Part shown: positions 2,476 to 24,000 of the stretch, piece after piece
How positions within the stretch are numbered: the first letter of the stretch is position 1
Layout: each line of letters begins with the position of its first letter
Source of the DNA: Candidatus Thorarchaeota archaeon
Lineage (GTDB): Archaea > Asgardarchaeota > Thorarchaeia > Thorarchaeales > Thorarchaeaceae
Reading direction: 5' to 3'
Assembly: GCA_003345555.1 (NCBI GenBank)
Contig: PRDJ01000063.1
Coordinates: 967 to 24,966 of the forward strand
Length of the DNA: 24,000 bases
Notes under the pieces: model-generated
What the model was told of the DNA's origin: nothing
The model's input: the letters and a program-made list of their open reading frames with translations, nothing else
Database searches by the model: none
Program-made: the position numbers and the translations under genes

Positions 2476-3136
2476 TGTGTGGCTCGTTGAGACGGGGCGA
2501 TTTCGGTCTAGGCAGACCGCGAAGAGAGCTATTCGCGATGGGCTCATTACAGTCAATGGAAGGTTGGCAAAGCCTTCTACTCAACTGAACGGCACGGAGT
2601 CGATTATCATTTCCGGCGCCTCAGACCTTCTGATGGGATATGACAAGCTGAGTCATCTAGATAGTCTCCTAGGAGGCAATGTGGTCAAGAGTGGTGACAT
2701 GGTACTCGACCTCGGGAGCTCGGCAGGGGGTTTCCTCGAGTACATACTGGAGAAAGGCGCTATAGCAAAGGGAATTGAGATATCTGAGCGATTCAAAGAC
2801 GGTCTTCTGCAGCTCGCCAGTACCCACCCGAACGTTTCCATAGTTATCGGAGATGCTTTCAAGATCGAACCTCTGACGCTGTTCAATGAGAGCGAGCTGG
2901 ATTTGCTCTTGGTCGACGTCACAACTGACCCTGAGGGAACGGCAGCTTTGATTGCGAAGTATTCGGAGCTATTAAAGCACGGGGGCCGTCTAATCGCGGC
3001 TTTCAAGTCAAGACTGACGCCTTCCATAGCTACTGTTCTGACGGACCGGGTTTCTGCGTTAGGGTACACTGATGTAAGCGCCATAACTCTCGATGACTCT
3101 CGTCAAGAGTTTCACGTTGCAGGAGTACGCCTGTGA
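2462..3136 (+). CDS. S4-domain SAM-dependent RNA methyltransferase (TlyA/FtsJ-like)
   Basis: The N-terminal S4-like segment is RLDVWLVETGRFRSRQTAKRAIRDGLITVNG. SAM-binding motif I is VLDLGSSAGGF, and the later LLLVDV acidic motif is typical of FtsJ/TlyA 2'-O-methyltransferases. Confidence 0.75.
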   Translation: MPRLDVWLVETGRFRSRQTAKRAIRDGLITVNGRLAKPSTQLNGTESIIISGASDLLMGYDKLSHLDSLLGGNVVKSGDMVLDLGSSAGGFLEYILEKGAIAKGIEISERFKDGLLQLASTHPNVSIVIGDAFKIEPLTLFNESELDLLLVDVTTDPEGTAALIAKYSELLKHGGRLIAAFKSRLTPSIATVLTDRVSALGYTDVSAITLDDSRQEFHVAGVRL

Positions 3137-3191
3137 ATGCTATCAAGTAGCAATGAGAGCGACGATTCTCAGAGATTGTCTTCTCACAACG

Positions 3192-3199
3192 TTTTTAAT
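3192..3199 (+). promoter_or_regulatory. TATA-like box (TTTTTAAT) for tRNA-Val
   Basis: Its centre is about 29 nt upstream of the tRNA 5' end (3225), consistent with a very short leader. Confidence 0.4.
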
Positions 3200-3224
3200 C
3201 ACAATCCCGCGAGGACTGCCTTAC

Positions 3225-3338
3225 GGGGCGGTAGTCTAGCCCGGCCATGATGACTCGCTTACACCGAGTAAGCGGTGACTCGTTAATAGTAAGTCATCGC
3301 CTCGAGGGTCACGAGTTCAAGTCTCGTCCGCCCCACCA
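3225..3338 (+). tRNA. tRNA-Val(UAC) with a 36-nt non-canonical intron (about 3271-3306, position 44/45) and encoded CCA
   Basis: The acceptor stem is GGGGCGG/CCGCCCC with A73 and CCA. The D-arm is GTCT..TGAT. The anticodon arm is ACTCG-CTTACAC-CGAGT (anticodon 3260-3262) and the T-arm is ACGAG-TTCAAGT-CTCGT. A 41-nt stretch lies between the anticodon stem and the T-stem. It contains a 9-bp hairpin (3272-3280/3292-3300) flanked by a bulge-4bp-bulge motif. Confidence 0.8.
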
Positions 3339-3419
3339 TGAACACACAATATCTCTCTTCTTTACCCTAAGATTATAACAGGGTTTCTTTCAGTCATTGA
3401 ATGGCCACCAATCTACAGT

Positions 3420-3538
3420 GCGGGAGTTGCCAAGTCTGGTCAAAGGCGGCGGACTTAAGATCACGAAATCACGGGGTCATCCGATAGGACATCCGCCCTC
3501 GTAGGAGTTCGTGGGTTCGAACCCCACCTCCCGCACCA
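3420..3538 (+). tRNA. tRNA-Leu(UAA) with a 31-nt canonical (37/38) intron at about 3460-3490 and encoded CCA
   Basis: The acceptor stem is GCGGGAG/CTCCCGC with A73 and CCA. The anticodon stem is GCGGA/TCCGC with loop CTTAAG|intron|A (anticodon 3456-3458). The long variable arm is CCTCGTAGGAGTTC and the T-arm is GTGGG-TTCGAAC-CCCAC. Confidence 0.9.
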
Positions 3539-3610
3539 TTATCATTCTGGCTGATCCTGGCCGGATAGAGTTATCATTACGTTGTGTCGCGAGTACCTGT
3601 CGTGACATCG

Positions 3611-4930
3611 ATGGGATACAAGACTCTCAAGTTTCCAAAGGGGTTTCTCTGGGGTTCTGCGGCTTCAGCTCATCAGACCGAAGGCGGCAATCACAACGAT
3701 TGGACAGAATGGGAAAGAATACCGGGCAAGATCAAGGATGGCACCAATTCAAGTGTGGCTTGCGACCATTATCATCGTTACGAAGAGGATTTCGATTTAG
3801 CAAAAGAGCTAGGCCATCAAGTCCACCGCTTTTCCGTTGAATGGAGCAGGATAGAACCGGACCGAGGGAAGTGGGATGAACGCGAGGTCGACCACTATCG
3901 TGCAGTGACAAAGACACTTGTACAACGTGGCATCCAACCAATGGTAACCCTTCACCATTTCACTAATCCCATCTGGTTTCGTGATGCTGGCGCTTGGCTC
4001 AATCCGAAAAGCCCTGACATGTTCGCTCCATATTGTCGCAAAATTGCCAAGGCGCTATCAGAATACGATGTAATATGGAACATCATAAATGAGCCCATGA
4101 ATGTCGTAGGAGGAGGCTATCTATTGGGAGAATTTCCTCCGGGTGAACACGACTATGGTAAGGCGCTTGTTGCAGCCAAGCATCTGCTAATGGCTCATGG
4201 ACTGGCTGCCAAGGGTATTCGTGAGACCTATGATGACCTAGGTCTGCACCAGCCTCAGATTGCTCCCGTTCAAGTCGTAACATACATTGAACCATATGAT
4301 CGGAGTAACGGTAGTGATGTTGAATTGGCTGAGTACGTGGACTCTCTTTACAATCAGATGTGGCTCCAAGGCGTTATGACAGCATCTATCCCCGAACCAG
4401 CAGGTGACGGCAGTCAGTACGAACCCCTAGAGAACTCTGCTGACTTCATTGGCGTAAACTACTACAGTCGCATGCGCGTTTCATCCAAGCTGGATTTCAT
4501 GGCCGGAGAAATGCCGCCCAAAGATGACAGTCTGGAGAGATGTGAAGGACTCGATTGGGAGGTCTACCCGCAAGGTTACTATCCGGTAATCAAGTCGTAC
4601 TGGGATAGGTGGCGAAAACCGCTTTTCATGACCGAGAATGGTATAGGAACTCTTGACGACCGGCTCCGATGCAGGTATATCCTAACCCATCTCCAACAAG
4701 TGCATCGGGCAATCCAAGACGGAGTAGACATTCGAGGCTACCTAGTGTGGAGTCTAACTGATAACTTTGAATGGACTGACGGACTGAGTAGTCACTTCGG
4801 CCTGATTGGAATGGACTACTCAACTCTAAAACGCACACCAAGAGAAAGCGCCTACATGTATCGTGAGATCATCCAGAAGAACGGAATAAGCGGGTCTCTA
4901 CAACAGAAGTACCTAGGCCGACATTCATAA
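3611..4930 (+). CDS. glycoside hydrolase family 1 beta-glucosidase/beta-galactosidase
   Basis: It has the N-terminal FPKGFLWGSAASAHQTEGG, the acid/base motif IINEP and the nucleophile motif FMTENG. The ORF track starts at GTG 3584. I prefer ATG 3611 (MGYKTLKFPKGF), given the usual GH1 N-terminus and the TTATCATT box at 3571-3578. Confidence 0.9.
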   Translation: MGYKTLKFPKGFLWGSAASAHQTEGGNHNDWTEWERIPGKIKDGTNSSVACDHYHRYEEDFDLAKELGHQVHRFSVEWSRIEPDRGKWDEREVDHYRAVTKTLVQRGIQPMVTLHHFTNPIWFRDAGAWLNPKSPDMFAPYCRKIAKALSEYDVIWNIINEPMNVVGGGYLLGEFPPGEHDYGKALVAAKHLLMAHGLAAKGIRETYDDLGLHQPQIAPVQVVTYIEPYDRSNGSDVELAEYVDSLYNQMWLQGVMTASIPEPAGDGSQYEPLENSADFIGVNYYSRMRVSSKLDFMAGEMPPKDDSLERCEGLDWEVYPQGYYPVIKSYWDRWRKPLFMTENGIGTLDDRLRCRYILTHLQQVHRAIQDGVDIRGYLVWSLTDNFEWTDGLSSHFGLIGMDYSTLKRTPRESAYMYREIIQKNGISGSLQQKYLGRHS

Positions 4931-4985
4931 GGCCGCCCATTCGGCAGTTCACTCCGTCATTCTCCTATGTGTGGAATCCACAAAC

Positions 4986-5549
4986 ATGCTAATTGAAGCA
5001 CTGATATCTTCTATGGGTGTTGTTTTTCTGGCCGAGCTTGGTGACAAGACCATGCTTGCGACCATTTGCTTTAGTGCACAGTGCAGGAAACCATTACTGG
5101 TTCTCGTTGCTTCAATGCTGGCATTGACATGTGCCACTGTGTTAGCAGTCGTCGCTGGAACAGTTCTAGCGGCCGCTTTACCATTGCAGCTGATAATCTA
5201 TCTGTCTGCTATTATCTTCCTCAGCATGAGTGTCTATACACTTGTCGAAATCGACAGTGGAACTGGAGATACGAACAAGATCACAGGCACGTTCCTTAGC
5301 ATGGCATCGCTGGTCTTTGTTTCGGAGTTAGGAGACAAGACTCAGCTTGCTTGCCTGGCACTTGCGGCAGAGAGTCCTTATCCCGTTGCTATATTCATAG
5401 GAGCCATTGCTGGATTCTTTGCTGCAAATAGTATAGCCGCAGTTGCTGGGCACAGGCTCGCAGGTTCCATTCCAATCCGCGTGATTAGAGGTGCAACTGC
5501 TACAGTCTTCATCATCATAGGCACTCTTGTTCTGCTGGGTGTCTTGTAG
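4986..5549 (+). CDS. UPF0016 / GDT1-TMEM165 family cation (Ca2+/Mn2+) transporter
   Basis: Two copies of the family signature E-x-G-D-K-T are present (AELGDKTMLAT and SELGDKTQLAC), within a polytopic hydrophobic protein. The ORF track start is GTG 4971, and ATG 4986 gives the typical N-terminal length. Confidence 0.85.
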   Translation: MLIEALISSMGVVFLAELGDKTMLATICFSAQCRKPLLVLVASMLALTCATVLAVVAGTVLAAALPLQLIIYLSAIIFLSMSVYTLVEIDSGTGDTNKITGTFLSMASLVFVSELGDKTQLACLALAAESPYPVAIFIGAIAGFFAANSIAAVAGHRLAGSIPIRVIRGATATVFIIIGTLVLLGVL

Positions 5550-5661
5550 GTGAATAGCTTCCCTCCAGACGTATTTCAGGCAATCATGAAGTGACGACTC
5601 AAGAGCGAAGGTTTATGACTGCCGCAGAAGCTCAAGCGTCAAGAATGAAGGTGAGGCAGCA

Positions 5662-7014
5662 TTGAGCCTGCAGGATTCCGGATATAGAGGTCTAGTTCTT
5701 AGAAAACTCGAAGAAGCCAACGCTCAGCTCGGAGACAGAATCAGGATTTCACTGAAAGATGGGGAAGTGACCGGCATACTCATGCCTCGTGCTCAAATCG
5801 GAGCCGACCCGGACCATGCGGTAATCAAGATGGACAATGGGTATAACATTGGAGTTCGCATTGACGCTCAGGTAACGGTTAGCTTGGTTCAGAAAGCCGG
5901 GGCAGGAAAGCGTCCAAGTTCAAGGGCCACCGCTGTTGAGACGCCAGGCCTTCCAAGCGTGGCTATATTGAGTACCGGGGGGACCATCGCAAGTAGAGTT
6001 GACTACCGGACTGGTGCTGTTAATCCGGCACTCACTGCAGAGGACTTGTATGACACAGTCCCGGAACTGAAAGAGCACGCCAACGTTCGTGCCAAAGTAA
6101 TCATGAGCGTCCTTTCTGAGAACATTCATCCTAAAGACTGGACAACAATCGCAGGGGCTGTAGCCTTAGAAATCAGGCGAGGTGCTGATGGAGTAGTGAT
6201 ACCACACGGCACAGATACGCTTGGAGTGACCTCCGCAGCTATGGCATTCGCACTCCAGGAATTGCCCGTACCCGTAGTATTGGTGGGTTCTCAAAGGTCA
6301 TCTGACAGGCCTTCGTCTGACGCGGCATTGAACCTCATAGGCGCAACAGAGATTGCATGTAAGGCTAATGCGGCTGAAGTCATGCTAGCTATGCACGGGG
6401 AACCTAGTGATAGCTTCATTCTTGCCCACAGGGGAACGCGTGTCCGCAAGTGTCATACAAGCAGACGAGACGCTTTTCAATCAGTGAACTGCTCCCCTAT
6501 CTTTAGGTATGATTCTGCGGGAATCACAGAGATCTCATCTCCAATCAGTCGTCGTGACACCACGAGGAAAATTCGTCTGAAGCCCGACTTTGACGACAAA
6601 GTCGTGCTCATCAAGACCTATCCGGGCATTAGTGAAGGCATGATAGACATGATCGTTGATGCCAAATACCGAGGATTGGTAATAGAGGGCACAGGCCTTG
6701 GTCATGCACCCGAACGAATTCATTCGTCCATAAGAAGGGCAATTGATGCTGGCGTCATTGTGGCCATGACGAGCCAATGCATCTGGGGGAGAGTTAACAT
6801 GAACGTGTATCGTCCGGGTGTTGAACTGCTACAGATGGGTGTAATACCCTGCGAAGACATGCTACCTGAAACAGCACTAGTCAAACTGATGTGGCTTCTG
6901 GCGAACAAGAAGGAAACCGATGAAGTTAGGACCGCGATGACCCAGAGCATTGTTGGAGAGATTGGAACCAGGACCGAGTTATCCGCAGGGGCTGGCCGTA
7001 AGGAGGGCGAATGA
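5662..7014 (+). CDS. gatD: Glu-tRNA(Gln) amidotransferase subunit D
   Basis: The N-terminal GatD-specific domain is present (IKMDNGYNIGVRI). The asparaginase-type motifs ILSTGGTIAS and HGTDT follow. TTG start. It is followed directly by gatE. Confidence 0.9.
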   Translation: MSLQDSGYRGLVLRKLEEANAQLGDRIRISLKDGEVTGILMPRAQIGADPDHAVIKMDNGYNIGVRIDAQVTVSLVQKAGAGKRPSSRATAVETPGLPSVAILSTGGTIASRVDYRTGAVNPALTAEDLYDTVPELKEHANVRAKVIMSVLSENIHPKDWTTIAGAVALEIRRGADGVVIPHGTDTLGVTSAAMAFALQELPVPVVLVGSQRSSDRPSSDAALNLIGATEIACKANAAEVMLAMHGEPSDSFILAHRGTRVRKCHTSRRDAFQSVNCSPIFRYDSAGITEISSPISRRDTTRKIRLKPDFDDKVVLIKTYPGISEGMIDMIVDAKYRGLVIEGTGLGHAPERIHSSIRRAIDAGVIVAMTSQCIWGRVNMNVYRPGVELLQMGVIPCEDMLPETALVKLMWLLANKKETDEVRTAMTQSIVGEIGTRTELSAGAGRKEGE

Positions 7015-8932
7015 GCTGGAGTCTCAAGAGCATTACAGGGCAATTGAATTGAAAATTGGCCTCGAGCTGCATCAGCAACTCGATAGTAGCCGGAAGCTGT
7101 TCTGCCACTGTGCTCCGGTCGTTCGAGAAGATGAGCCAGATGGACGTTTCATCAGACGTCTCAGACCGACAACGAGTGAAATGGGCCAGGTTGATCCTGC
7201 AGCATTGTTTGAATTCCAGAAGCAGAAGAGCTTCTATTACGAGTATTACGACGACACTACCTGCCTCGTTGAAGCCGACGAGGAGCCTCCTCATGACCTC
7301 AACCCTGAGGCTATTGACATATGTTTGACAATCGCTGCTATTCTCAAATCGACTCCAGTCCACGAAATCCACGCTATGAGAAAGATTGTGATAGATGGTA
7401 GCAATACGGCCGGCTTTCAGCGGACTGCCATAGTCGCGAATGGTGGCAGCATTCAGGTGGGAGGAAAGACAGTCGGCATCCAGATGATTGGTCTTGAAGA
7501 GGATGCCGCGAGGAAGATTGCTGATGACGATGAAAAGAACGCCAGAATATACCGTCTTGATCGACTTGGTATTCCCCTAGTTGAAATCGCGACGGCTCCT
7601 GACATTAGCTCACCGAAAGAAGCTCAGGAGGTTGCTCAAGCCATCGGCTTGCTCCTCCGGTCCACTGGTAGGGTGAAGCGCGGTCTGGGCACAATCAGGC
7701 AAGATGTCAACATATCAATTGAAGGCGGACGAGTTGTCGAAATCAAGGGGTTCCAGCAGCTTGACCTGATCAGCAGGCTTGTCGAGCTTGAGGTCCAGAG
7801 ACAAGAAGGTCTCACGGGAATACGTGACGTGCTTCTGCAAAGAGGTGTCACCCCAAACATGTTTCAACAGACACCTCAGGACATCACCGTACTCCTTGCG
7901 AATTCCGGATCCAAGCTCATTAGAGGTGCGCTCGAATCCGGCGGTGTGGTTCTTGGAGTGAAGCTTCCCGGATTTGCTGGCTTGGTTGGACAGGAATTGC
8001 AGCCAGGGCGAAGACTTGGCACCGAGCTGTCGGACTACGCGAAATTCTGGGGCGGAGTTGGAGGTATTTTCCACACAGATGAGCTGCCCAAGTACGGAAT
8101 CACATCTTCCGATGTTGCGAAGATGCGGGAATCTCTGAATGCCGATGACATGGACGCAGTGGTCATAGTCGCTGCTTCGAAGAGGAACTGCGAAGATGCT
8201 CTCCACGCTGTTCTGGATAGGGCTCGTGCCGCATTAGAGGGAGTGATTTCCGAGACACGAACACCCCTACCGGATGCGTCGTCAAAGTACGCTCGGCCCC
8301 GGCCTGGCGCACAAAGGATGTATCCCGAGACCGATGTGCGGCCCGTTAAGGTCACTGTAGCACATCTCAAGACAATCGCCCGAAACATGCCCGAGACCTT
8401 GGAGAGCAAAGAAGAACGATTCGTGAAGGAGTATTCTCTTAGTAGAGAGATGGCATCACAAGTGACCCGGTCTTTGAATCTCGACCTCTTCGAGAAGATT
8501 GTCAAGGTCTCTTCTGTTGCTCCTAAGCTGGTTGCTACAACGTTAGAGAACACAATGGTGCGTCTTCAGAGGGACGGAGTCGCTGTTGATAGCCTAGATG
8601 AAAGGCATCTGCTGTCGGTCTTCCAAGCGGTATCAGAGGGCAAGTTAACACCCGAAGGAATCCCTACACTGCTAACGGGACTCGCCAGTAATCCCAATCG
8701 TGAAGTAGAGGAGCTGCTTGCAGCCACTCGAACTGGTACGATGAGTCACGACGAGGCGCAATCGATCATCCACCGCATAGTGGACGACCGTCGCGATTTC
8801 ATACGGGAACATGGTGAGGACTCAATTAGCGGTCTCATGGGTATTGCAATGAAGGAAATCCGAGGGCGTCTTGACGGAAAGGCGGTCAAAGAGCTACTTT
8901 CTGCCGAGGTCAAGCAAGTCCTCAAGGAGTAG
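6950..8932 (+). CDS. gatE: Glu-tRNA(Gln) amidotransferase subunit E
   Basis: ELKIGLELHQQLDSSRKLFCHC is the GatE/GatB-type N-terminus, and a GatB/YqeY-like tail is present at the C-terminus. The real start is uncertain. ATG 6950 overlaps gatD by 65 nt, and the better-placed ATG 7011 is out of frame (see finding). Confidence 0.9.
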   Translation: MLERLEPGPSYPQGLAVRRANELESQEHYRAIELKIGLELHQQLDSSRKLFCHCAPVVREDEPDGRFIRRLRPTTSEMGQVDPAALFEFQKQKSFYYEYYDDTTCLVEADEEPPHDLNPEAIDICLTIAAILKSTPVHEIHAMRKIVIDGSNTAGFQRTAIVANGGSIQVGGKTVGIQMIGLEEDAARKIADDDEKNARIYRLDRLGIPLVEIATAPDISSPKEAQEVAQAIGLLLRSTGRVKRGLGTIRQDVNISIEGGRVVEIKGFQQLDLISRLVELEVQRQEGLTGIRDVLLQRGVTPNMFQQTPQDITVLLANSGSKLIRGALESGGVVLGVKLPGFAGLVGQELQPGRRLGTELSDYAKFWGGVGGIFHTDELPKYGITSSDVAKMRESLNADDMDAVVIVAASKRNCEDALHAVLDRARAALEGVISETRTPLPDASSKYARPRPGAQRMYPETDVRPVKVTVAHLKTIARNMPETLESKEERFVKEYSLSREMASQVTRSLNLDLFEKIVKVSSVAPKLVATTLENTMVRLQRDGVAVDSLDERHLLSVFQAVSEGKLTPEGIPTLLTGLASNPNREVEELLAATRTGTMSHDEAQSIIHRIVDDRRDFIREHGEDSISGLMGIAMKEIRGRLDGKAVKELLSAEVKQVLKE

Positions 8933-9097: not shown

Positions 9098-9237
9098 GCC
9101 GCAGTGGCCTAGTTGGCTAGGGCGCGAGACTCATAATCTCCTCGAACTCGTCGGGGTACACATGGGGTCACAAGGTCTCGACCCAAACCAGATAAGCGAT
9201 CTCGAAGTCGGGGGCTCGAATCCCCCCTGCGGCACCA
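9098..9237 (+). tRNA. tRNA(CAU), elongator Met or Ile2, with a 63-nt canonical intron (about 9136-9198) and encoded CCA
   Basis: The acceptor stem is GCCGCAG/CTGCGGC with A73 and CCA. The D-arm is GCCT-AGTTGGCTA-GGGC. The anticodon stem is CGAGA/TCTCG with loop CTCATA|intron|A (anticodon 9132-9134). The variable loop is AAGTC and the T-arm is GGGGG-CTCGAAT-CCCCC. It is not an initiator, because it has G1-C72 and lacks the GGG/CCC anticodon stem. Confidence 0.85.
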
Positions 9238-10668: not shown

Positions 10669-10780
10669 TGGAGCCTCGGGCGAGTCTTGAACTCGCGACC
10701 TTCCGCTTTTCCGGCCTGCAGGCTGCGCTCCTGCTGCAAAGCTTACAAGGCGGATGCTATAACCCCTAAGCCACCGAGGC
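10669..10780 (-). tRNA. tRNA-Thr(UGU) with a 36-nt canonical intron (about 10708-10743) and encoded CCA
   Basis: Read on the reverse complement, the acceptor stem is GCCTCGG/CCGAGGC with U73 and CCA. The D-arm is GCTT-AGGGGTTA-TAGC. The anticodon stem is TCCGC/GCGGA with loop CTTGTA|intron|A (anticodon = plus 10745-10747). The variable loop is AGGTC and the T-arm is GCGAG-TTCAAGA-CTCGC. Confidence 0.9.
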
Positions 10781-18065: not shown

Positions 18066-19208
18066 TTGTCGATGACACAATCTTCTGAGGAGCGATGGTT
18101 GAGCACGACTCCGGACCGGATTTCATATCTCAGGGCTGATTCCACAGGATGGTTGCTCGAGCAGGACAACGCATCTGTTCGTTACTTCGCTCTAAGAGAC
18201 CTTCTTGAATGTCCCCCCAAAGACCCAGAAGTCCTTGATGCCAAACTCAGAATTGGAGCATCCGAGCAAGTCACGAAGATATTCCTGAAGCAGAAACCGG
18301 ACGGTCACTGGGAAAGGCCCGAAGAGCCGTATCAGCCCAAGTACAAGGCATCCTACTGGCAAGTTATGCTTCTGGGCATGCTGGGTCTTGACAAATCGGA
18401 TGAGCGAGTCAGGAGTGCTATCAATCACATCTTTTCGTTTCAGCATGAAGAAGGTGGTTTTGCTCAGTACGGAGCGGAAGGAGCTCGTGCGGAATACGAC
18501 TACGTCTCTCATAGGGCATCACGATATGGAAAGACTATTCTTTCATTCAGGCCTTGGGCCGAGAAGGAACTCCATGACTCCCAGATGTCTTGCCTCACGG
18601 GGAATGTCTCTCTTGCTTTGATTCGGCTAGGGTATTCCAGAGATGCCCGACTGCGCAAAGCATTGAATTGGCTGGTGAAGGTACAGAACCTCGACGGCGG
18701 CTGGTTGTGTCCGTACTGGGGGGCCCACATACATGACAAGCATGGCTGTTTCATGGGCACCATCACTCCTCTTCATGCATTCGCTGAGTATCCCAAGAAG
18801 TACAGGACACCGGGTATGCAGAAGGCCATCGAAACCGGTGTCGAATTCCTTCTAATGCACAGGCTGTTCAAGGCGGACAATCATGGCTTCAAGGTGATCA
18901 AACCGTCTTGGCTCACCCTCAGTTTTCCGCAGTTCTTCTATGACATATTGCGTGCCCTTCTGGTGGTGACTAGCCTGGGATACGCTGCTGACGAGCGAAT
19001 AGATGACGCACTGAAAGAGATCCTTCACAGGCAGAATGAGAAAGGCAGATGGGCTGTCGAAGCTACCTTGGCCGGCAGACTGCAAACTACCTTGGAGAAG
19101 CAAGGCCGACCGAGCAAGTGGATTACCCTAGATGCTCTGAGAGTGATTAAGAACGTTGTCAAAGAGAGAGGTCAGTTGAACACCGGCGGAGGCGGTTCCG
19201 AACCGTGA
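18066..19208 (+). CDS. alpha/alpha-toroid protein with prenyltransferase/terpene-cyclase-type repeats
   Basis: Four spaced Q-x-x-(x)-[DEK]-G-x-[WF] motifs are present: KQKPDGHW, FQHEEGGF, VQNLDGGW and RQNEKGRW. They resemble the prenyltransferase/squalene-cyclase repeat. The precise function is unknown. TTG 18066 or ATG 18072 could be the start. Confidence 0.55.
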   Translation: MSMTQSSEERWLSTTPDRISYLRADSTGWLLEQDNASVRYFALRDLLECPPKDPEVLDAKLRIGASEQVTKIFLKQKPDGHWERPEEPYQPKYKASYWQVMLLGMLGLDKSDERVRSAINHIFSFQHEEGGFAQYGAEGARAEYDYVSHRASRYGKTILSFRPWAEKELHDSQMSCLTGNVSLALIRLGYSRDARLRKALNWLVKVQNLDGGWLCPYWGAHIHDKHGCFMGTITPLHAFAEYPKKYRTPGMQKAIETGVEFLLMHRLFKADNHGFKVIKPSWLTLSFPQFFYDILRALLVVTSLGYAADERIDDALKEILHRQNEKGRWAVEATLAGRLQTTLEKQGRPSKWITLDALRVIKNVVKERGQLNTGGGGSEP

Positions 19209-19252: not shown

Positions 19253-19330
19253 TGGCGGGCACGGTCGGATTTGAACCGACGACATCCAACTCCGAAGGCT
19301 GGTGCCTTGTCCAAGCTAGACTACGTGCCC
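19253..19330 (-). tRNA. tRNA-Arg(UCG), intron-less, with encoded CCA
   Basis: The reverse complement reads GGGCACG TA GTCT AGCTTGGACA AGGC A CCAGC CTTCGGA GTTGG ATGTC GTCGG TTCAAAT CCGAC CGTGCCC G CCA. This is a perfect cloverleaf with the anticodon at plus 19293-19295. Confidence 0.92.
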
Positions 19331-19696: not shown

Positions 19697-20494
19697 TTGT
19701 CTGGCACAATGGTCATCTTGAAGGGTCTGGGCAGTGACTTGACAGGGGTTGATGGCACCAAGCTTGATCCATCCCGTCTTACAACACTTGAGGATATCTT
19801 GAAACAGGCGTTCGGTGCCAGTACCAAAGCAACAGTCGTACGAAGATTCGAGAGCAAGAAGAACGTCGTTCTTCAACTCAGGATTGAGGGCAAGAGAAAG
19901 GCTGCTCAAACCAACATGGTTGCGAAGCTGTTTGTAACTGACCGTTTTGAGATAGAGCTGCAATTGCTCAATGCATGTCATGAGCGTGGGCCCGATGTAC
20001 CAGAGGTTCTTGCTGGCAAAGAAGGCGTGATATTAATGTCATTCATATCTGGGGAGCTTCTAGTTGAAGCAATCAACCGGACCTTCGACTCCGGATTGAT
20101 TGACACACTTGTTGCATGGTACTACGAATATCACACCCTACACAAGCTCACCAAAGGCGATCCTAAGCTGAAGAACTTCATCTACAATGATGGTGTGATT
20201 TTCGGTATAGACTTCGAAGAATCCCGACCCGGAGACTGGATGTTAGATATCGGGGGTATTGCCGCCAGTCTGCTCGATACAACACCTGTTTTTGACAAGC
20301 GGAAGAGAATCTTAGCTTGGCATCTACTGGAGCAATACTTGAGGCTTAGGAACGAGACCCGCAACCATGACATTGATCATACATTCCTTCAAACAGTATC
20401 AAGTGCGCTGAAAGAAACTGCTCACTGGCGCAAAGACAACAGCCTTCTTTTGCTCGCCGAGAGCGTCTCTCGCTTCGGAATTCCTATCGAGTGA
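19697..20494 (+). CDS. protein-kinase-like fold phosphotransferase (APH/Bud32/RIO-like)
   Basis: A beta3-type Lys is present (MVAKLFV). The catalytic-loop-like segment is KGDPKLKNFIY and the DFG-like segment is FGIDFEES. An alternative start exists at ATG 19709. Confidence 0.55.
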   Translation: MSGTMVILKGLGSDLTGVDGTKLDPSRLTTLEDILKQAFGASTKATVVRRFESKKNVVLQLRIEGKRKAAQTNMVAKLFVTDRFEIELQLLNACHERGPDVPEVLAGKEGVILMSFISGELLVEAINRTFDSGLIDTLVAWYYEYHTLHKLTKGDPKLKNFIYNDGVIFGIDFEESRPGDWMLDIGGIAASLLDTTPVFDKRKRILAWHLLEQYLRLRNETRNHDIDHTFLQTVSSALKETAHWRKDNSLLLLAESVSRFGIPIE

Positions 20495-20553
20495 GATATT
20501 GCCATTCCAAGGTCTTTGGCTGCCTTTCCCTAATCTTCATATTACCATCTCCG

Positions 20554-20583
20554 TACTGATATGTTCACTCGAACATATCAGTA
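20554..20583. promoter_or_regulatory. perfect 13-bp inverted repeat with a 4-nt spacer (TACTGATATGTTC-ACTC-GAACATATCAGTA)
   Basis: Read directly from the sequence. It lies 23 nt upstream of ATG 20606, just downstream of the A/T-rich CTTCATATTACC (20535-20546), and 60 nt after the stop of the preceding gene. Confidence 0.6.
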
Positions 20584-20605
20584 GGCTCACATGGAGACTC
20601 CTTGA

Positions 20606-22153
20606 ATGAATCGTGGAGCAGCTGTACTTGTGCTCTCGTTGGTACTAGTGGCCGCAGGCCTCGCAGTGGGTCTGTTTGTCTTTCAACCCATAAGAGAATC
20701 TCCAGCAATCTCGGTCCAAGGGGGATACCTAGTTGGTACGTCAAGTGATACTGCATTGGTTCGGGCTATGAGCCTAAGTCTAGACATCACGCTGCTTTGG
20801 GAATCTCAGTCAGGAGTCGGCTTGTTCAGAATCAATGTGACCAACATAGATACCGAGAGAATGATTGCAGAATCGGATGCACAGGTCACCGTTGTTGCAG
20901 TCGGGTATAGCTCCAAGACTTTCGAAGTACGTACGACCGCACTGAAGGCCGAGCTCAGTCTACGGCATACGTCCTCAGATTCCATTCGATTCTATGTCTT
21001 CGGCGATTCACAAGGCTATCAAGGCGGAATGCAGCAAATCGTATTATCTGCGAACGAGAACAGACCAGACTTTCTGTTCCACTGCGGAGACCTTACGCCC
21101 TTCGGTCAGGAGAACCAGTACGTTAGTTTCACGCAGGCTCTTCATAATCTGACAATACCTTTGTTCGCTACCACTGGAAATCACGACGTACGCAAGGGGG
21201 GCGACTTGCGATACCTTCAACACTTTGGTCCTTCCAGTTATTCGTTTGATTTTGGCGCTGCACACTTTACAGTTCTCGATACTTCCAGTGGCAATGTTTC
21301 GGAGGCGGCCTATAGTTGGCTAGCTAACGATATCATCGGATCTTCTGCAGAATGGAAGATTGTATTCACTCACATTCCCCCGTTTGATCCACGCCCCGGA
21401 GGAAACCATACGTTAGGTAATACCACTACAGCCGAACGGTTGATGAATCTGTTCAAGACTTCGGGTGTAAACATAGTGTTTGCCGGCCACATTCATGTAT
21501 TCAATGAAACCATCTTCGGTGGTGTGCATTATGTAATCACAGGGGGCGCCGGCGCGACCGTATCTCCGAGTTCACAAGGAGGAACGTACCACTATGTCAA
21601 CGTCACATTACAAGGGTCAAATCTCCTGATGAATGTCATACCGTTGAGTCCTCCAATTCTGGCCGTTGGCACAATTACAATTCGAGGGGTTTTAGATAGT
21701 ATGACGGTCTCGCTTGAGGATTTGGGAACACTCACAACTATCGTGGGTTCATCGTCATTCCAGAATCAGTATGGCAACTGGGGCGGACTAGGCGAATACA
21801 GAGGAGTCCGAGTATCAGACTTGGTCGACATGGTTGGTGGAATGACAACGAATGAATTACTGTCCGTGTCAGCGTTCGATGGTTACCAACGACTGTACTC
21901 CTACTGGAATGTCTATCCCAATGATTCTTGGCATTCACTGCAGGGCGACATGATACTCGCATATGAGTTCAACGAGACATTGGGCCCAACTTGGCAAGAC
22001 GGTCCGAGGATCGCAATGCTCGCACCCGACGGCGCTTACAGCAACGATGACTGTTTGGCTACTTCGGCTCCGGGGCTAGGCTTCTACTATTACCCGTCTG
22101 CGGGCGCGCTCTGGGTTAGGTGCGTAGTACTTATTGAGGTGAATCACGAGTGA
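20606..22153 (+). CDS. membrane-anchored extracytoplasmic metallophosphoesterase (purple-acid-phosphatase-like layout) with a C-terminal molybdopterin-oxidoreductase-like beta domain
   Basis: An N-terminal signal-anchor is present (AAVLVLSLVLVAAGLAVGLFVF). The phosphoesterase motifs are FGDSQG, HCGDLTPFG, TGNHD, FTHIPP and AGHIHVF. There are eight N-x-S/T sequons. The C-terminal 160 aa (YRGVRVSDLV, SVSAFDGY, ILAYEFNE, WVRCVVLIEV) resemble the SUOX/YedY-type fold. Confidence 0.8.
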   Translation: MNRGAAVLVLSLVLVAAGLAVGLFVFQPIRESPAISVQGGYLVGTSSDTALVRAMSLSLDITLLWESQSGVGLFRINVTNIDTERMIAESDAQVTVVAVGYSSKTFEVRTTALKAELSLRHTSSDSIRFYVFGDSQGYQGGMQQIVLSANENRPDFLFHCGDLTPFGQENQYVSFTQALHNLTIPLFATTGNHDVRKGGDLRYLQHFGPSSYSFDFGAAHFTVLDTSSGNVSEAAYSWLANDIIGSSAEWKIVFTHIPPFDPRPGGNHTLGNTTTAERLMNLFKTSGVNIVFAGHIHVFNETIFGGVHYVITGGAGATVSPSSQGGTYHYVNVTLQGSNLLMNVIPLSPPILAVGTITIRGVLDSMTVSLEDLGTLTTIVGSSSFQNQYGNWGGLGEYRGVRVSDLVDMVGGMTTNELLSVSAFDGYQRLYSYWNVYPNDSWHSLQGDMILAYEFNETLGPTWQDGPRIAMLAPDGAYSNDDCLATSAPGLGFYYYPSAGALWVRCVVLIEVNHE

Positions 22154-23214
22154 GTCTTGACCGTTCAACGGCACAAATGACCCGTGAAATCGTAACGGTC
22201 GCTGTTCTGGCCTCCCTCGGTGGCGCTCTAAGCACCTTTGTAGGCTATCTAGGTAATCTCATAAATGCCGGCCTGGGTGTGCCATTTGGAGCAGGCCAGT
22301 TCATGGCTGGTCTCCATGTCTTCTGGATTGTGCTGATCAGACTATTGGTGCCGAAGAGGGGGGTCGGAACCGCAGGAGGTCTTCTGAAGGGCTTCGTTGA
22401 GTTCCTGACAGGCAGCACACACGGAATTGTCGTTGTGTTGGTATCCGTCATTCAGGGCGCTATTGTGGATCTGGGTGCTACCTTGGGGGGAAGACCATCC
22501 CCCGCAGGACCCGGGGCGAAGCTCGTGTGGTGGCTTTCAGCCGGTGTCTCTTCTGCTTCCAACGTGTTAGCGCTCCAATTCCTCTACTTCTCAGGCGCAC
22601 CTGCAATCTACCTCTTCCTAATCGCAGTCCTCGCTTTCTGCTCTGGAATCATCTTTGGCGGCTATTTCGCATGGGAAACAATGCAGTTCCTATATGACGC
22701 AAGAGTCATAGTTCCCGTCTCTGAAGCGGCGGTGCCAGTTCTCTCATCTAAGCGGAGGATAAGGATTCGAAATCTCCCGGCCATAGTACTGATTCTTTTC
22801 CTAATTGTCGGCTCATCCTTCTATCTTGCGTTTGTGATGAAGGCTTTGTCAGACCCGTACTCTTGCGAAGTTACGGGGCTCGTCACAAATCCGTATACTT
22901 TCACATACTCAGCATTTGCTGGTGAGCAGGTTACAATTGTGGCCGAACTCAAGGGCGCGTATATCTCTCTCCCTCCCGCGAATTACACTGGGGTTCTTCT
23001 GAGTGTAATTCTGGCGAATGCAAGTCCGCAGTCAGGAGCTTCCATGTTGAGCGTGAGCGCACGGGATGGCTACGTTGTAGATTTCGGCCTGGATGGCGTT
23101 CTCGCTGATGGCCATTTACTGCTGACAAGAGCTGACGATGGTCTCTGGCTTATTGCCGGAAACTATGCCGGTTCGATGTGGGTAAAACAGGTCACTACTC
23201 TCAGAGTGTACTAG
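22150..23214 (+). CDS. ECF-transporter S-component-like membrane protein (YkoE-like) fused through an extra TM helix to an extracytoplasmic domain paralogous to the upstream phosphoesterase C-terminus
   Basis: There are six hydrophobic helices, with GLLKGFVEFLTGSTHGIVVVLVSVIQGAIVDLG resembling YkoE/ABC_cobalt-type S components. A KRRIRIR loop follows, then TM7 (LPAIVLILFLIVGSSFYLAFVM), then a 124-aa domain (YTGVLLSVIL, SVSARDGY, WVKQVTTLRV). The GTG start overlaps the upstream stop (GTGA). Confidence 0.7.
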   Translation: MSLDRSTAQMTREIVTVAVLASLGGALSTFVGYLGNLINAGLGVPFGAGQFMAGLHVFWIVLIRLLVPKRGVGTAGGLLKGFVEFLTGSTHGIVVVLVSVIQGAIVDLGATLGGRPSPAGPGAKLVWWLSAGVSSASNVLALQFLYFSGAPAIYLFLIAVLAFCSGIIFGGYFAWETMQFLYDARVIVPVSEAAVPVLSSKRRIRIRNLPAIVLILFLIVGSSFYLAFVMKALSDPYSCEVTGLVTNPYTFTYSAFAGEQVTIVAELKGAYISLPPANYTGVLLSVILANASPQSGASMLSVSARDGYVVDFGLDGVLADGHLLLTRADDGLWLIAGNYAGSMWVKQVTTLRVY

Positions 23215-23226
23215 GCGAGAACCACT

Positions 23227-24000
23227 ATGCTTGAAGCGCGTCACGTCACTTTCTCCTATGATGGAATACAACCTGTACTTCGTTCCATAGACCTGACGCT
23301 TCAACGAGGGGAGACTCTACTAATCACGGGCCCAACCGGTTCGGGAAAGTCGACTCTGGCCAAGTTCCTCTGTGGATTCATACCACGAATCGTCCGTGGC
23401 GAATGTTCCGGTGTACTGTCCATCGACGGTGACGACGCCGATTCTCTTACACTAACCGAAATTGCGCGGAAAGTATCTCTCGTACAGCAGGATCCCGAGA
23501 GCCAGATTTGTACCCTTACGGTAAGTGACGAGGTAGCATTCGGACCAGAGAACTACCTGATTAAACCCGAAGTTATGACCCGCCTAGTTGACTCGTCGTT
23601 GGCATCTATCGGATCATCTCATCTTGCTGGTCGTTTGACTTATGCATTGTCCGGTGGAGAGAAACAGCGGGTTGTGATAGCTTCAATGCTTGCGTGCCAA
23701 CCTGACTATCTGATTCTAGATGAACCCTCGTCGAGTCTAGATCAGAAAGGCATTCTCCAGCTCGGACAGATATTGAGTGAGCTGAAGAAAAAGAACTTGG
23801 GTGTCATATGCATTGAACATCATCTTGAGCCATTCCTGCCGTCGGCAGACCGTGTTCTATCATTATCTGAGGGCAGACTGTTTCCTTGGGCCCAAGACGT
23901 TGGCCGGAGGGGCGGCCCATTCCAAAATCATTCTGTTCTGCCAATCGAGACCGATGCCCTCGCTTCAATGAAGAATGTCAGTTTTGCCTATGCAGACAGG
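23227..24000 (+). CDS. ECF/ABC transporter ATP-binding protein, apparently a fused double ATPase (YkoD-like); partial, runs off the window
   Basis: I translated this by hand and found it open to nt 24000. The Walker A motif is GPTGSGKST, the Q-loop is VQQDPESQI, the signature is LSGGEKQR, the Walker B is LILDEP and the H-loop is CIEHH. A second ABC domain starts after residue 245 (MKNVSFAYADR). Confidence 0.85.
   Translation, partial: MLEARHVTFSYDGIQPVLRSIDLTLQRGETLLITGPTGSGKSTLAKFLCGFIPRIVRGECSGVLSIDGDDADSLTLTEIARKVSLVQQDPESQICTLTVSDEVAFGPENYLIKPEVMTRLVDSSLASIGSSHLAGRLTYALSGGEKQRVVIASMLACQPDYLILDEPSSSLDQKGILQLGQILSELKKKNLGVICIEHHLEPFLPSADRVLSLSEGRLFPWAQDVGRRGGPFQNHSVLPIETDALASMKNVSFAYADR

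Follow-up and report, generated by a model that had tools for sequence, protein, structure and literature searches.

A Thorarchaeota ECF transporter locus in which the S component and a surface phosphoesterase share a sulfite oxidase-like domain: a candidate uptake system in molybdenum- and tungsten-cofactor metabolism

Results

Organization of the Thorarchaeota Locus

The final part of a 24,000-nt stretch of DNA from a Candidatus Thorarchaeota archaeon (assembly GCA_003345555.1, contig PRDJ01000063.1, positions 967 to 24,966 of the forward strand; the whole stretch is hereafter termed the window) carries three co-directional genes, encoding a surface-anchored metallophosphoesterase (MPE; gene 1), the substrate-binding S component of an energy-coupling factor (ECF) transporter (gene 2) and a fused double ECF ATPase (gene 3), together with a kinase-like gene (K). 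Genes 1 and 2 both end in a domain with the fold of the sulfite oxidase (SUOX) family (Table 1). In our judgment it is an even call that the window holds the archaeal form of a conserved, hitherto undescribed group-I ECF uptake system for molybdenum/tungsten (Mo/W) cofactor metabolism. An earlier, sequence-only reading of this DNA had described the three genes as co-directional and tightly packed, and both the table of open reading frames (ORFs) and the gene junctions agree with it: the GTG start codon of gene 2 overlaps the TGA stop codon of gene 1 (GTGA at 22150-22153), and 12 nt (23215-23226) separate gene 2 from gene 3.

Gene 2 matches the YkoE family (PF09819) in Pfam with an E-value of 4.8e-15, and the S-family profile matches the crystal structure of YkoE (5edl) at E 5e-4. 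The AlphaFold2 (AF2) model of the protein covers its full length (mean predicted local distance difference test score, pLDDT, of 81), shows six core helices and is matched by Foldseek to 5edl (E 2.3e-5; target-normalized TM-score 0.75), as well as to RibU and ThiT, in agreement with the YkoE-like S component that the sequence-only reading had recognized. Gene 3 matches ABC_tran (3.4e-26) and ECF_ATPase_1 (2e-52), and the part of it that lies in the window holds the first ATP-binding cassette (ABC) domain. A gene 2 that is 100% identical occurs on a 141-kb Thorarchaeota metagenome contig (L001), where the full product of gene 3 has 484 aa and two ABC domains, and the gene for a 252-aa CbiQ-family T component (ecfT) comes next. 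A YkoD-like double ATPase and a T component just past the end of the window, both anticipated earlier, are hence found on this contig, and the same double ATPase and CbiQ arrangement recurs in 60-70 other loci. By homology, gene 2, gene 3 and ecfT constitute a group-I ECF transporter, the type encoded by a dedicated operon, for which ATP-driven import is predicted.

The thiamine-binding pocket of YkoE (5EDL) is formed by five residues (Y46, W49, E77, Q95, and D131), two of which, E77 and Q95, hydrogen-bond the pyrimidine ring of the ligand (PMC5037267). In a profile alignment to 5edl, this glutamate/glutamine pair corresponds to E84 and Q102, both invariant in the gene 2 family, while W49, Y46, and D131 correspond to the equally invariant H56, A53, and Q143; three of the five thiamine contacts are thus replaced, in a residue alignment that is tentative at this distance of homology. 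Because the ring-binding pair is kept and the other three contacts are replaced, the pocket looks, tentatively, suited to a heterocycle that offers an aminopyrimidine-like edge, as pterins do, and not to thiamine.

Table 1. Position of the genes, domains and other features discussed (coordinates in the window, strand in parentheses where given).
Feature	Position	Residues or length	Description
Gene K	19697-20494 (+)	265 aa	Kinase-like; no transmembrane (TM) segment
Inverted repeat	20555-20584	Perfect 13-bp arms, 4-nt spacer	TACTGATATGTTC-ACTC-GAACATATCAGTA; candidate operator
Gene 1	20606-22153 (+)	515 aa	Surface-anchored MPE with C-terminal SUOX-like domain
Gene 1, signal-anchor	20618-20683 (+)	Residues ~5-26	Hydrophobic (hydropathy peak at residues 7-25); no twin-arginine motif
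Gene 1, pre-domain	20687-20968 (+)	Residues 28-121	Optional
Gene 1, MPE domain	20984-21589 (+)	Residues 127-328	Binuclear metallophosphoesterase
Gene 1, C-terminal domain	21638-22150 (+)	Residues 345-515	SUOX fold, PruR-like; no Mo-ligand Cys
Gene 2	22150-23214 (+)	354 aa	ECF S component with extra TM helix and external SUOX-like domain
Gene 2, S core	22162-22698 (+)	Residues ~5-183	Six-helix, YkoE-like
Gene 2, linker and TM7	22699-22845 (+)	Residues 184-200 and 201-232	K/R-rich cytoplasmic linker (SSKRRIRIRN); seventh TM helix
Gene 2, C-terminal domain	22846-23211 (+)	Residues 233-354	Shortened SUOX fold; no Mo-ligand Cys
Gene 3	23227-24000 (+)	258 of 484 codons	5' part of fused double ECF ATPase; leaves the window
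tRNA gene	3225-3335		
tRNA gene	3420-3535		
tRNA gene	9098-9234		
tRNA gene	10672-10780		
tRNA gene	19256-19330 (-)		Between the cluster and the upstream prenyltransferase/cyclase-like gene
Upstream gene	18066-19208	380 aa	Weak matches to squalene-hopene-cyclase/prenyltransferase alpha-toroid repeats

The Phosphoesterase and the S Component Share a SUOX-Fold Domain

The C-terminal domains of genes 1 and 2, of ~170 and ~120 aa, respectively, are too divergent for pairwise comparison, in which BLASTP of the two proteins yields no significant match (E 0.058). The profiles of the two C-terminal families (120 homologs each) do align (hhalign probability 85%, E 5.7e-6), and both models retrieve the same set of structures. 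The AF2 model of the gene 1 domain (pLDDT 88) is matched by Foldseek to PruR (7kos, 7kom, 7rkb), SorT, SorA, SoxC, and YedY with E-values from 1e-5 to 1e-3, and the full gene 2 model to SorA, YedY, SoxC, and PruR with E-values from 9e-6 to 2e-3; nitrate reductase is also among the SUOX-fold matches, and 7RKB is PruR solved with neopterin. The corresponding Pfam family, PF00174 (Oxidored_molyb), is matched by 27 of 33 members of the gene 1-domain family (best E-value 5.5e-8) and weakly by gene 2 (E 0.0028), with matches recorded for many gene 2 homologs. Profile searches of the PDB with a narrow gene 1-domain alignment (A2), or with a lone stand-alone domain (L042), returned no SUOX match. The alignment was therefore broadened to a joint profile of 34 diverse domains (A3), which from sequence alone matches SorA at 7e-11 and PruR (7KOM) at 3.6e-5; shortened to its N-terminal sub-profile (A4), it places PruR chains on top of the PDB matches, with E-values of 0.037-0.07. 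Judged from profile and model comparison, the two C-terminal domains are homologous, as the sequence-only reading had proposed in calling them paralogous, and the blocks that it had found in both (Y-x-G-V, D-G-Y, and W-V-[RK]-x-V) form the conserved core of the SUOX fold. The domain left unnamed there can hence be assigned to a cysteine-less SUOX/PruR-like, Moco/pterin-binding fold (Moco, molybdenum cofactor).

SUOX enzymes ligate molybdenum through a cysteine borne on a long beta-hairpin. No cysteine is present between the first strand and the Y-x-G-V block in either window domain or in 33 of the 34 aligned domains, relative to which the FCECAAN segment of SoxC aligns as an insertion. Each of the two domain types has a conserved cysteine elsewhere, C139 in the gene 1-type domain (residue ~483, window ~22052-22054), near-invariant and located in a 28-residue insertion (SNxDC), and C239 in gene 2 (window 22864-22866), near-invariant to invariant and located in a YSCEV segment just after the seventh TM helix (TM7); neither corresponds to the position of the SUOX Mo ligand. 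In PruR, the hairpin is truncated, a tryptophan in a P-W motif takes the place of the cysteine, and a tyrosine and a tryptophan hold the pterin between them (PMC11194511). The gene 1-type domain, at 12-16% identity to PruR, displays a near-invariant N47-W48 (domain numbering) that aligns with the P-W of PruR 7rkb and 7kp2, and a D81-G82-Y83 motif that aligns with the N-D-Y of PruR (N102, Y104), an invariant aspartate replacing the hydrogen-bonding asparagine. In gene 2, D306-G307-Y308 and W344 are invariant, D306 and Y308 being the counterparts of D81 and Y83, and a C-terminal tryptophan is conserved in both families (W159 in the gene 1 domain, W344 in gene 2), which matches the pterin-sandwiching W160 of PruR by position only. 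The gene 2-type domain has no hairpin tryptophan and shows instead a near-invariant Y271.

The possibility that these SUOX-like proteins are themselves Moco enzymes, regulated as users of the cofactor, was considered and rejected. Because they lack the Mo-ligand cysteine and are predicted to be exported through Sec, as lipoproteins or on a TM tether rather than through the twin-arginine translocation (Tat) pathway, the SUOX-like domains do not appear to be molybdoenzymes.

Topology and Activity of the Surface Components

The six TM helices of S components leave the N- and the C-terminus on the cytoplasmic side. In gene 2, the AF2 model places helices at residues 152-183 and 201-232, with a low-pLDDT linker between them, and the distribution of charges obeys the positive-inside rule. 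Given the cytoplasmic termini of S components, the seventh TM helix and the positive-inside charges, the C-terminal domain is expected to lie outside the cell, and both sequons of gene 2 fall within it. N-terminal anchors are found across the gene 1 family, in which a loose RR pattern is matched by just six of 120 members, and bacterial SUOX-like relatives bear lipoprotein lipoboxes or S-layer-homology (SLH) domains. No Tat motif was seen among the archaeal signal-anchor and bacterial lipobox/SLH proteins inspected. Both SUOX-like domains and the phosphoesterase are accordingly predicted to be extracytoplasmic, and since they would be exported by Sec, a lipoprotein signal or a TM tether, the SUOX-like domains should reach the surface unfolded and without a cofactor. 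A cytoplasmic phosphoesterase would have undone the surface system that the sequence-only reading envisaged; the N-terminal anchor of gene 1 places the enzyme outside. That reading also counted eight N-x-S/T sequons in gene 1 and called the protein sequon-rich; there are nine, against 4.2 +/- 1.8 expected from shuffling (p ~0.02), so that the enrichment stands as a modest one and the count does not.

Gene 1 matches Metallophos (PF00149) in Pfam with an E-value of 9.5e-18, which bears out its earlier description as an N-terminally anchored metallophosphoesterase. Among solved structures, its MPE domain is closest to the glycerophosphodiesterase GpdQ (2e-7), to purple acid phosphatases (5e-6) and to Rv0805, and 118-120 of 120 homologs keep its metal-ligand motifs (GDSQG, GDL, GNHD, TH, and GHIH) unchanged. 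The tyrosine ligand of purple acid phosphatases (GDxxY) is absent from the window domain, which reads GDLTP at this position, and the best solved match is to GpdQ. On the strength of these motifs, the phosphoesterase is probably active; whether it prefers mono- or diesters cannot be told from sequence. The pre-domain is absent from ~75% of gene 1 homologs (420-425 aa), which keep the SUOX-like domain. In bacterial relatives, a Pur_ac_phosph_N domain occupies the position of the pre-domain in a separate MPE, and some bacterial operons encode such a separate Pur_ac_phosph_N and Metallophos protein in place of the MPE-SUOX fusion.

Distribution and Architecture of the System

A scan of one genome per GTDB species recovered 80 loci with a full-length S-SUOX fusion, in Thorarchaeota, Heimdallarchaeota, Hermodarchaeota, many Thermoplasmata and two Bacillota, and annotation with hidden Markov models (HMMs) revealed the order MPE-SUOX, S-SUOX, double ATPase, and T component in nearly all of them. 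A scan of metagenomes seeded with the two bacterial S proteins added 80 further loci of the same composition; many derive from assemblies of bioreactors or fermentations, others from JGI (Joint Genome Institute) samples whose origin is not stated. The number of bacterial S-SUOX proteins exceeds 1000 at E<=1e-20; among the organisms that encode them are Syntrophomonadaceae, Desulfotomaculaceae, Desulfitobacteriaceae, Dethiobacteria and Thermovorax subterraneus, which is available in culture. The recurrence of the same gene order across phyla bears out the earlier view of the three genes as one module, and the genome survey proposed with it finds the domain together with ECF components and phosphoesterases among the 80 species loci and the 80 metagenome loci. 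As a regular partner of the transporter, the phosphoesterase fares less well than had been supposed, since four loci (L037, L043, L064, and L078) have SUOX-like proteins only and no phosphoesterase. In some of the metagenome loci, the surface functions are distributed over a separate purple-acid-phosphatase-like protein and a SUOX domain encoded as a small lipoprotein beside the S gene. No gene for a DcpA-type diguanylate cyclase-phosphodiesterase occurs in any of the ~160 loci, where the partners of the SUOX-like domain are ECF components.

In many genomes, additional SUOX-like surface proteins, among them lipoproteins, S-layer-anchored and multi-domain forms, accompany the operon. In the Thermoplasmata, an extra upstream surface protein of up to 1244 aa contains two to four PF00174 domains, and in some Thorarchaeota a multi-PF00174 surface protein is encoded after ecfT. 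Genes for such multi-PF00174 proteins are located at 1763-5497 in L059, 340-4074 in L055, 2339-5329 in L045, and 5754-7226 in L033, and one of the domains of the L059 protein (DNA 3749-4207) has a cysteine near the hairpin position. Beyond the operon, the gene 1-type domain family comprises 751 clusters (50% identity) at E<=1e-3 and 120 at E<=1e-30, in architectures that encompass MPE fusions, PruR-like single domains, multi-domain arrays and giant surface proteins, the last of which (P0362, P0365, and P0360) combine the domain with PKD, DUF4430 (B12-binding-type), Shr-like haemoglobin-interacting (Shr-HID) and NosD domains. These combinations suggest that the gene 1-type SUOX-like domain may be a general external module for cofactor capture.

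The same architectures invite another explanation, in which the SUOX-like domains are ligand-free docking or assembly modules and specificity resides in the S pocket only, a proposal that would fit any substrate. Multi-domain arrays of the fold exist, SUOX enzymes dimerize, and the gene 2-type domain is shortened and devoid of the P-W-like tryptophan, all of which would suit a structural role. Such a role does not account for the (near-)invariance, in both families, of the D-G-Y motif and C-terminal tryptophan that align with pterin contacts, or for the stand-alone single-domain lipoproteins whose genes adjoin that of the S component as those of substrate-binding proteins do, and we regard it as quite improbable. 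A role of the domains in ligand capture is the reading followed here.

Two loci present peculiarities of their own. In Thermovorax subterraneus (L162), the ATPase and T components form a single protein of 793 aa, and a SUOX-like lipoprotein of 184 aa is encoded at 7395-7949. Upstream of the part of this cluster that the riboswitch controls, two genes for SUOX-like surface proteins flank a MotA/ExbB-family gene and a DUF2149 gene (861-1833). In L161 (782-10167), the operon appears twice as a mirror image (4164-5657 on the forward and 5844-7337 on the reverse strand), most likely as a palindromic assembly artefact.

A Regulatory and Genomic Link to the Molybdenum/Tungsten Cofactor

Riboswitches were sought with Rfam at gathering threshold (36 bits for RF01055, the Moco RNA motif). 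In a Bacillota locus (L058), the first operon gene is directly preceded, on the coding strand, by a full-length RF01055 element (67.8 bits), with a terminator-like hairpin and a ribosome-binding site 3' of the aptamer. RF01055 elements are also found directly upstream of the operon, on the coding strand, in L084/L110, L085, L091, L095, L100, L101, L105, L108, L111, L113, L115-L118, L121, L122, L136, L153/L154, and L162. Several of the metagenome loci are near-duplicates, and riboswitches were for this reason counted as distinct sequences: the 22 matches in metagenomes and metagenome-assembled genomes, with scores that over the whole set range from 53 to 80 bits, amount to 19 distinct sequences, to which L162 adds one. 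Stem P3 is absent in six of six printed alignments and in the other junctions inspected, L162 lying outside this inspection. Riboswitches of this class also precede molybdate/tungstate transporters and Moco-using enzymes, and variants without P3 correlate with genes for the tungsten cofactor (Tuco), as a correlation and not a proven specificity (PMC2408646). In L100, two RF01055 aptamers are arranged in tandem (2417-2540 and 2591-2710), an unannotated ORF of 166 aa (2733-3233) separates the pair from the first SUOX-like gene, and a ModABC/Wtp-like transporter adjoins the operon.

A second connection comes from the archaeal loci. In five Thorarchaeota loci (L030, L031, L034, L039, and L011), a gene for a molybdopterin oxidoreductase of the bis-molybdopterin guanine dinucleotide (bis-MGD) type is inserted between the K and MPE genes, and this insertion constitutes a link to Mo/W that is independent of the riboswitch. 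In L030, the oxidoreductase gene spans 3336-5312 and encodes ~659 aa with PF00384, PF01568 and an Fe4S4 domain. In the window, Rfam detects tRNAs and no other family. The scanned archaeal loci yielded no riboswitch, as expected for RF01055, a class not known from archaea.

The Rfam scans found no thiamine pyrophosphate (TPP), flavin mononucleotide (FMN), tetrahydrofolate (THF)/folate or other vitamin riboswitch on the coding strand before any operon. The one TPP element encountered (2159-2271 on the reverse strand of L153; 2273-2385 on the reverse strand of L154) neighbors the Moco riboswitch from the opposite strand; it belongs to a divergent gene of 436 aa and does not control the ECF operon. 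These results bear on the substrates that the sequence-only reading had put forward, which were phosphorylated vitamins (phosphates of thiamine or of hydroxymethylpyrimidine, HMP; pyridoxal phosphate, PLP; FMN or flavin adenine dinucleotide, FAD), which a YkoEDC-type transporter would take up after their dephosphorylation at the cell surface. The S component is indeed YkoE-like and annotated at source as a thiamin/HMP permease, E84 and Q102 are the pyrimidine-binding residues of YkoE, and the neighboring kinase-like protein, of the APH family, resembles the thiamine kinase family. The upstream riboswitches are nonetheless of the Moco type, the replacement of W49, Y46, and D131 affects most of the thiamine contacts, and the domain shared by transporter and enzyme has a Moco/pterin-binding fold. 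A thiamine, HMP, pyridoxal or flavin phosphate as the substrate is consequently disfavored, and we assign this explanation a very low probability.

A further candidate is a salvage system for pterins other than Moco, such as neopterin- or monapterin-like compounds or a folate or methanopterin precursor, in which the PruR-like domains would serve as receptors for the pterin and the phosphoesterase would strip neopterin phosphates. The closest small solved relatives of the shared domain are PruR pterin binders, one of them solved with neopterin, and W48 and Y83 align with the P-W motif and the stacking tyrosine of PruR; extracellular pterins, moreover, are abundant, and no pterin transporter is known (PMC13259868). 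Against this stands the biosynthetic origin of molybdopterin (MPT), which is made from GTP via cyclic pyranopterin monophosphate (cPMP) and not from such pterins; because MPT does not derive from non-Moco pterins, both the Moco/Tuco riboswitch and the bis-MGD gene are left unexplained. The lack of a THF or folate riboswitch upstream of the operons points in the same direction, and the explanation strikes us as distinctly unlikely. Uptake of a compound related to the Mo/W cofactor accommodates both observations.

A Kinase-Like Gene Adjoins the Operon

The product of gene K has a protein-kinase-like fold (APH/RIO/Bud32 type), and its invariant catalytic residues (K77, E87, G154-D155, N160, and D172) are all in place. 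The window protein shows weak APH and RIO1 matches in Pfam; within the family, 33 of 38 members match APH (PF01636; best E-value 7.9e-17) and 27 of 38 match RIO1, and a search of the PDB with the family profile finds Bud32/PRPK and RIO kinases (4e-9). Clustering of flanking ORFs shows that 55 of 81 loci have a member of this family (225-300 aa) beside the operon, in arrangements that differ between lineages: directly upstream and on the same strand in the Thorarchaeota, directly after ecfT on the opposite strand in the Thermoplasmata and in the Bacillota locus L058, and co-operonic after ecfT in L097, L098, L106, and L107. Because the linkage persists in three phyla under differing arrangements, it argues for a functional tie between K and the transporter operon. 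The conserved kinase-like neighbor also lends support to the logic of dephosphorylation followed by import, and on this point the earlier proposal divides: its logic is strengthened by the kinase, and the vitamins that it named as substrates are not.

A Candidate Operator and Other Features of the Window

A TATA-like box (TTCATATT) precedes the perfect inverted repeat of Table 1, both within 20535-20584, and the repeat lies ~22 nt 5' of the ATG of gene 1. The pattern GATATG-N10-CATATC occurs once in the window and in none of 100 shuffled sequences. With a strict palindrome pattern, the repeat is found upstream of the MPE gene in eight related loci out of 35 from Thorarchaeota; the CATATC half-site, whose count is more informative than that of the strict palindrome, is found near the MPE start in 31 of these 35. 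The palindrome may thus be an operator, a function suggested by its sequence and position.

The remaining genes of the window are of the housekeeping type and uninformative with regard to the module. Four of the five tRNA matches span 109-137 nt, against a model of 71 nt, which suggests the presence of archaeal introns. In another Thorarchaeota locus (L027), the neighboring slot is taken by a leucine-rich-repeat protein of 288 aa (cluster c10; 11 loci), and neither this protein nor the 380-aa toroid-like protein of the window has a visible relation to the module. The synteny of upstream genes within the Thorarchaeota (clusters c5 and c7-c10) was considered as a functional link and discounted as a reflection of mere relatedness.

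Discussion

A Model for Cofactor Capture, Trimming, and Import

Taken together, the riboswitches of the bacterial operons, the bis-MGD oxidoreductase genes of the archaeal ones and the fold of the shared domain make it likely that the system described here is an uptake system related to the Mo/W cofactor. The nature of its substrate is read from fold ancestry and regulatory context, and in a molybdopterin-type pterin cofactor, or a precursor of it, we can place an even measure of confidence. The full pathway set out below, a dedicated route for the uptake and salvage of Moco/Tuco, or of its pterin moiety, that proceeds through surface capture, trimming, ECF import and re-phosphorylation by a kinase and that would be the first of its kind in prokaryotes, is a tentative proposal toward which we lean slightly to the side of doubt.

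In the proposed model, external SUOX-like domains, exported by Sec and free of cofactor, would capture a molybdopterin-type pterin from the anoxic surroundings, be it Mo- or W-molybdopterin, one of their dinucleotide forms, a precursor or a breakdown product. The phosphoesterase, tethered to such a domain or co-encoded with it, would trim the ligand, through cleavage of the pyrophosphate in the nucleotide form or through loss of the terminal phosphate. The trimmed pterin would then pass from the SUOX-like domain of the S component to the S pocket, which keeps the glutamate/glutamine pair. The ECF module would import the pterin, and the cytoplasmic kinase would restore its phosphate. When the cofactor is plentiful, expression would be switched off, through the riboswitch in bacteria and perhaps through the palindromic operator in the Thorarchaeota.

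Several observations weigh against this model. Free Moco is labile, and we know of no MPT kinase; the nearest solved relatives of K are the Bud32 and RIO protein kinases, as judged by profile comparison. Some of the loci have no phosphoesterase or no kinase. Approximately one third of the scanned bacterial-type loci show no riboswitch match, several of them being cut at the 5' end, and for the window the riboswitch link is transferred from bacterial homologs that are 40-47% identical in sequence. The pockets of PruR-type proteins are described as too short for full Moco (PMC11194511). Finally, the riboswitch by itself cannot separate the uptake of a pterin from that of an oxyanion, because the same class also controls Mo/W transporters.

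It is this last ambiguity that sustains the main rival to the model, an ECF-type tungstate or molybdate importer in which the SUOX-like domains, and perhaps the binuclear site of the phosphoesterase, capture the oxyanion for the S component. Group-I ECF systems for metals that rely on extra external subunits are known (CbiMNQO, NikMNQO), and tungstate and molybdate bind and inhibit purple acid phosphatases as mimics of phosphate. Oxyanion transporters are the classical targets of Moco/Tuco riboswitches (PMC2408646), and those found upstream of the operons belong to the P3-less class that correlates with tungsten. The S core, however, is of the YkoE family, whose ligand is an organic heterocycle, rather than of the CbiM/NikM family, and it retains the ring-binding glutamate and glutamine. 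The SUOX fold is not known to bind a free oxyanion without a pterin. An oxyanion importer would, in addition, leave the conserved kinase and the strictly conserved phosphoesterase motifs without a role, and in at least one genome (L100) the ModABC/Wtp-like system already stands beside the operon. For these reasons we consider an oxyanion importer unlikely, and maintain uptake of a molybdopterin-type pterin as the preferred reading.

Relationship to Known Systems

The logic of the model has a close analog in the salvage of NAD by Haemophilus influenzae, where NadN, PnuC and NadR provide external trimming by an enzyme of the metallophosphoesterase family, uptake by a transporter and trapping by a cytoplasmic kinase. 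The sequence of trimming, import and phosphorylation proposed here would be the same, by analogy, with an ECF transporter instead of PnuC and a different substrate, and the NAD system has no domain common to its enzyme and its transporter. Extracytoplasmic additions to group-I ECF transporters are likewise known from metal uptake, as CbiMNQO and NikMNQO, the latter with NikK/L, require extra extracytoplasmic components; these systems use the CbiM/NikM family of S components and small accessory proteins, and not a SUOX domain fused to the S component. Among ECF transporters, the nearest counterpart is the thiamine transporter YkoEDC of Bacillus subtilis, with which the window system shares the PF09819 family of S components, the fused ATPase, the CbiQ-type T component, the dedicated operon and the glutamate/glutamine pair. 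The window system differs from it in the addition of TM7 and an external SUOX-like domain, in its surface partners and kinase, in the replacement of three of the five thiamine contacts and in the presence of a Moco/Tuco riboswitch, instead of a TPP riboswitch, in the bacterial relatives.

On the side of the shared domain, the window proteins have the fold and belong to the sequence family (PF00174) of the molybdoenzymes SorA, SorT, SoxC, and YedY/MsrP, from which they differ in the missing Mo-ligand cysteine, the truncated hairpin, the lack of a dimerization or haem domain and export by a route other than Tat. They also resemble PruR (7KOS, 7KOM, 7RKB, 7KP2), which is among the top Foldseek matches. 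PruR is a small, exported, cysteine-less protein of SUOX fold whose stacking tyrosine and, in the gene 1-type domain, hairpin tryptophan have aligned counterparts and whose C-terminal tryptophan is matched by position; it acts in Proteobacteria as a free periplasmic sensor regulating the cyclic di-GMP enzyme DcpA (PMC11194511). The window-type domain, in contrast, is fused to a transporter and to a phosphoesterase, occurs in archaea and Firmicutes and has no DcpA partner. Finally, the bacterial forms of the system belong to the same RF01055-controlled regulon as the oxyanion transporters ModABC, WtpABC, and TupABC (PMC2408646), which are type-I ABC transporters with a periplasmic oxyanion-binding protein, in place of the ECF module, heterocycle-type S pocket, phosphoesterase and kinase found here.

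Each of the parts is therefore known singly: ECF transporters, SUOX-fold pterin binders and salvage by dephosphorylation and import. In the literature searched, no system was found that combines the three, nor an S component to which an external receptor domain shared with a surface enzyme is fused, nor such a system within the Moco/Tuco regulon or any prokaryotic Moco importer, which is in line with the earlier remark that no described system of this arrangement was known to its author.

Implications

A 2026 review describes the passage of pterins across bacterial membranes as unknown (PMC13259868). Dietary Moco bound to protein can sustain nematodes (PMC7849362, PMC9793310), and in the literature searched they are the only organisms for which transfer of Moco from one organism to another is documented. 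The question can be addressed directly, given that a cultured carrier of the system exists in Thermovorax subterraneus and that the SUOX-like domains are small and soluble. Even as a tungstate importer of the ECF type, the system would represent a new kind of Mo/W transporter.

Should the model hold, the S component would be the first of an ECF transporter known to carry a fused external receptor domain, and the Moco-binding fold would have acquired a second, non-catalytic life as a transporter receptor. The users of the system would be Asgard archaea, Thermoplasmata and syntrophic Firmicutes of anoxic habitats, and its presence would change how genomes from these two archaeal groups and from syntrophs are read for auxotrophy for the Mo/W cofactor. 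Within anoxic communities, those of sediments and digesters among them, a costly and labile cofactor would then be traded as a public good.

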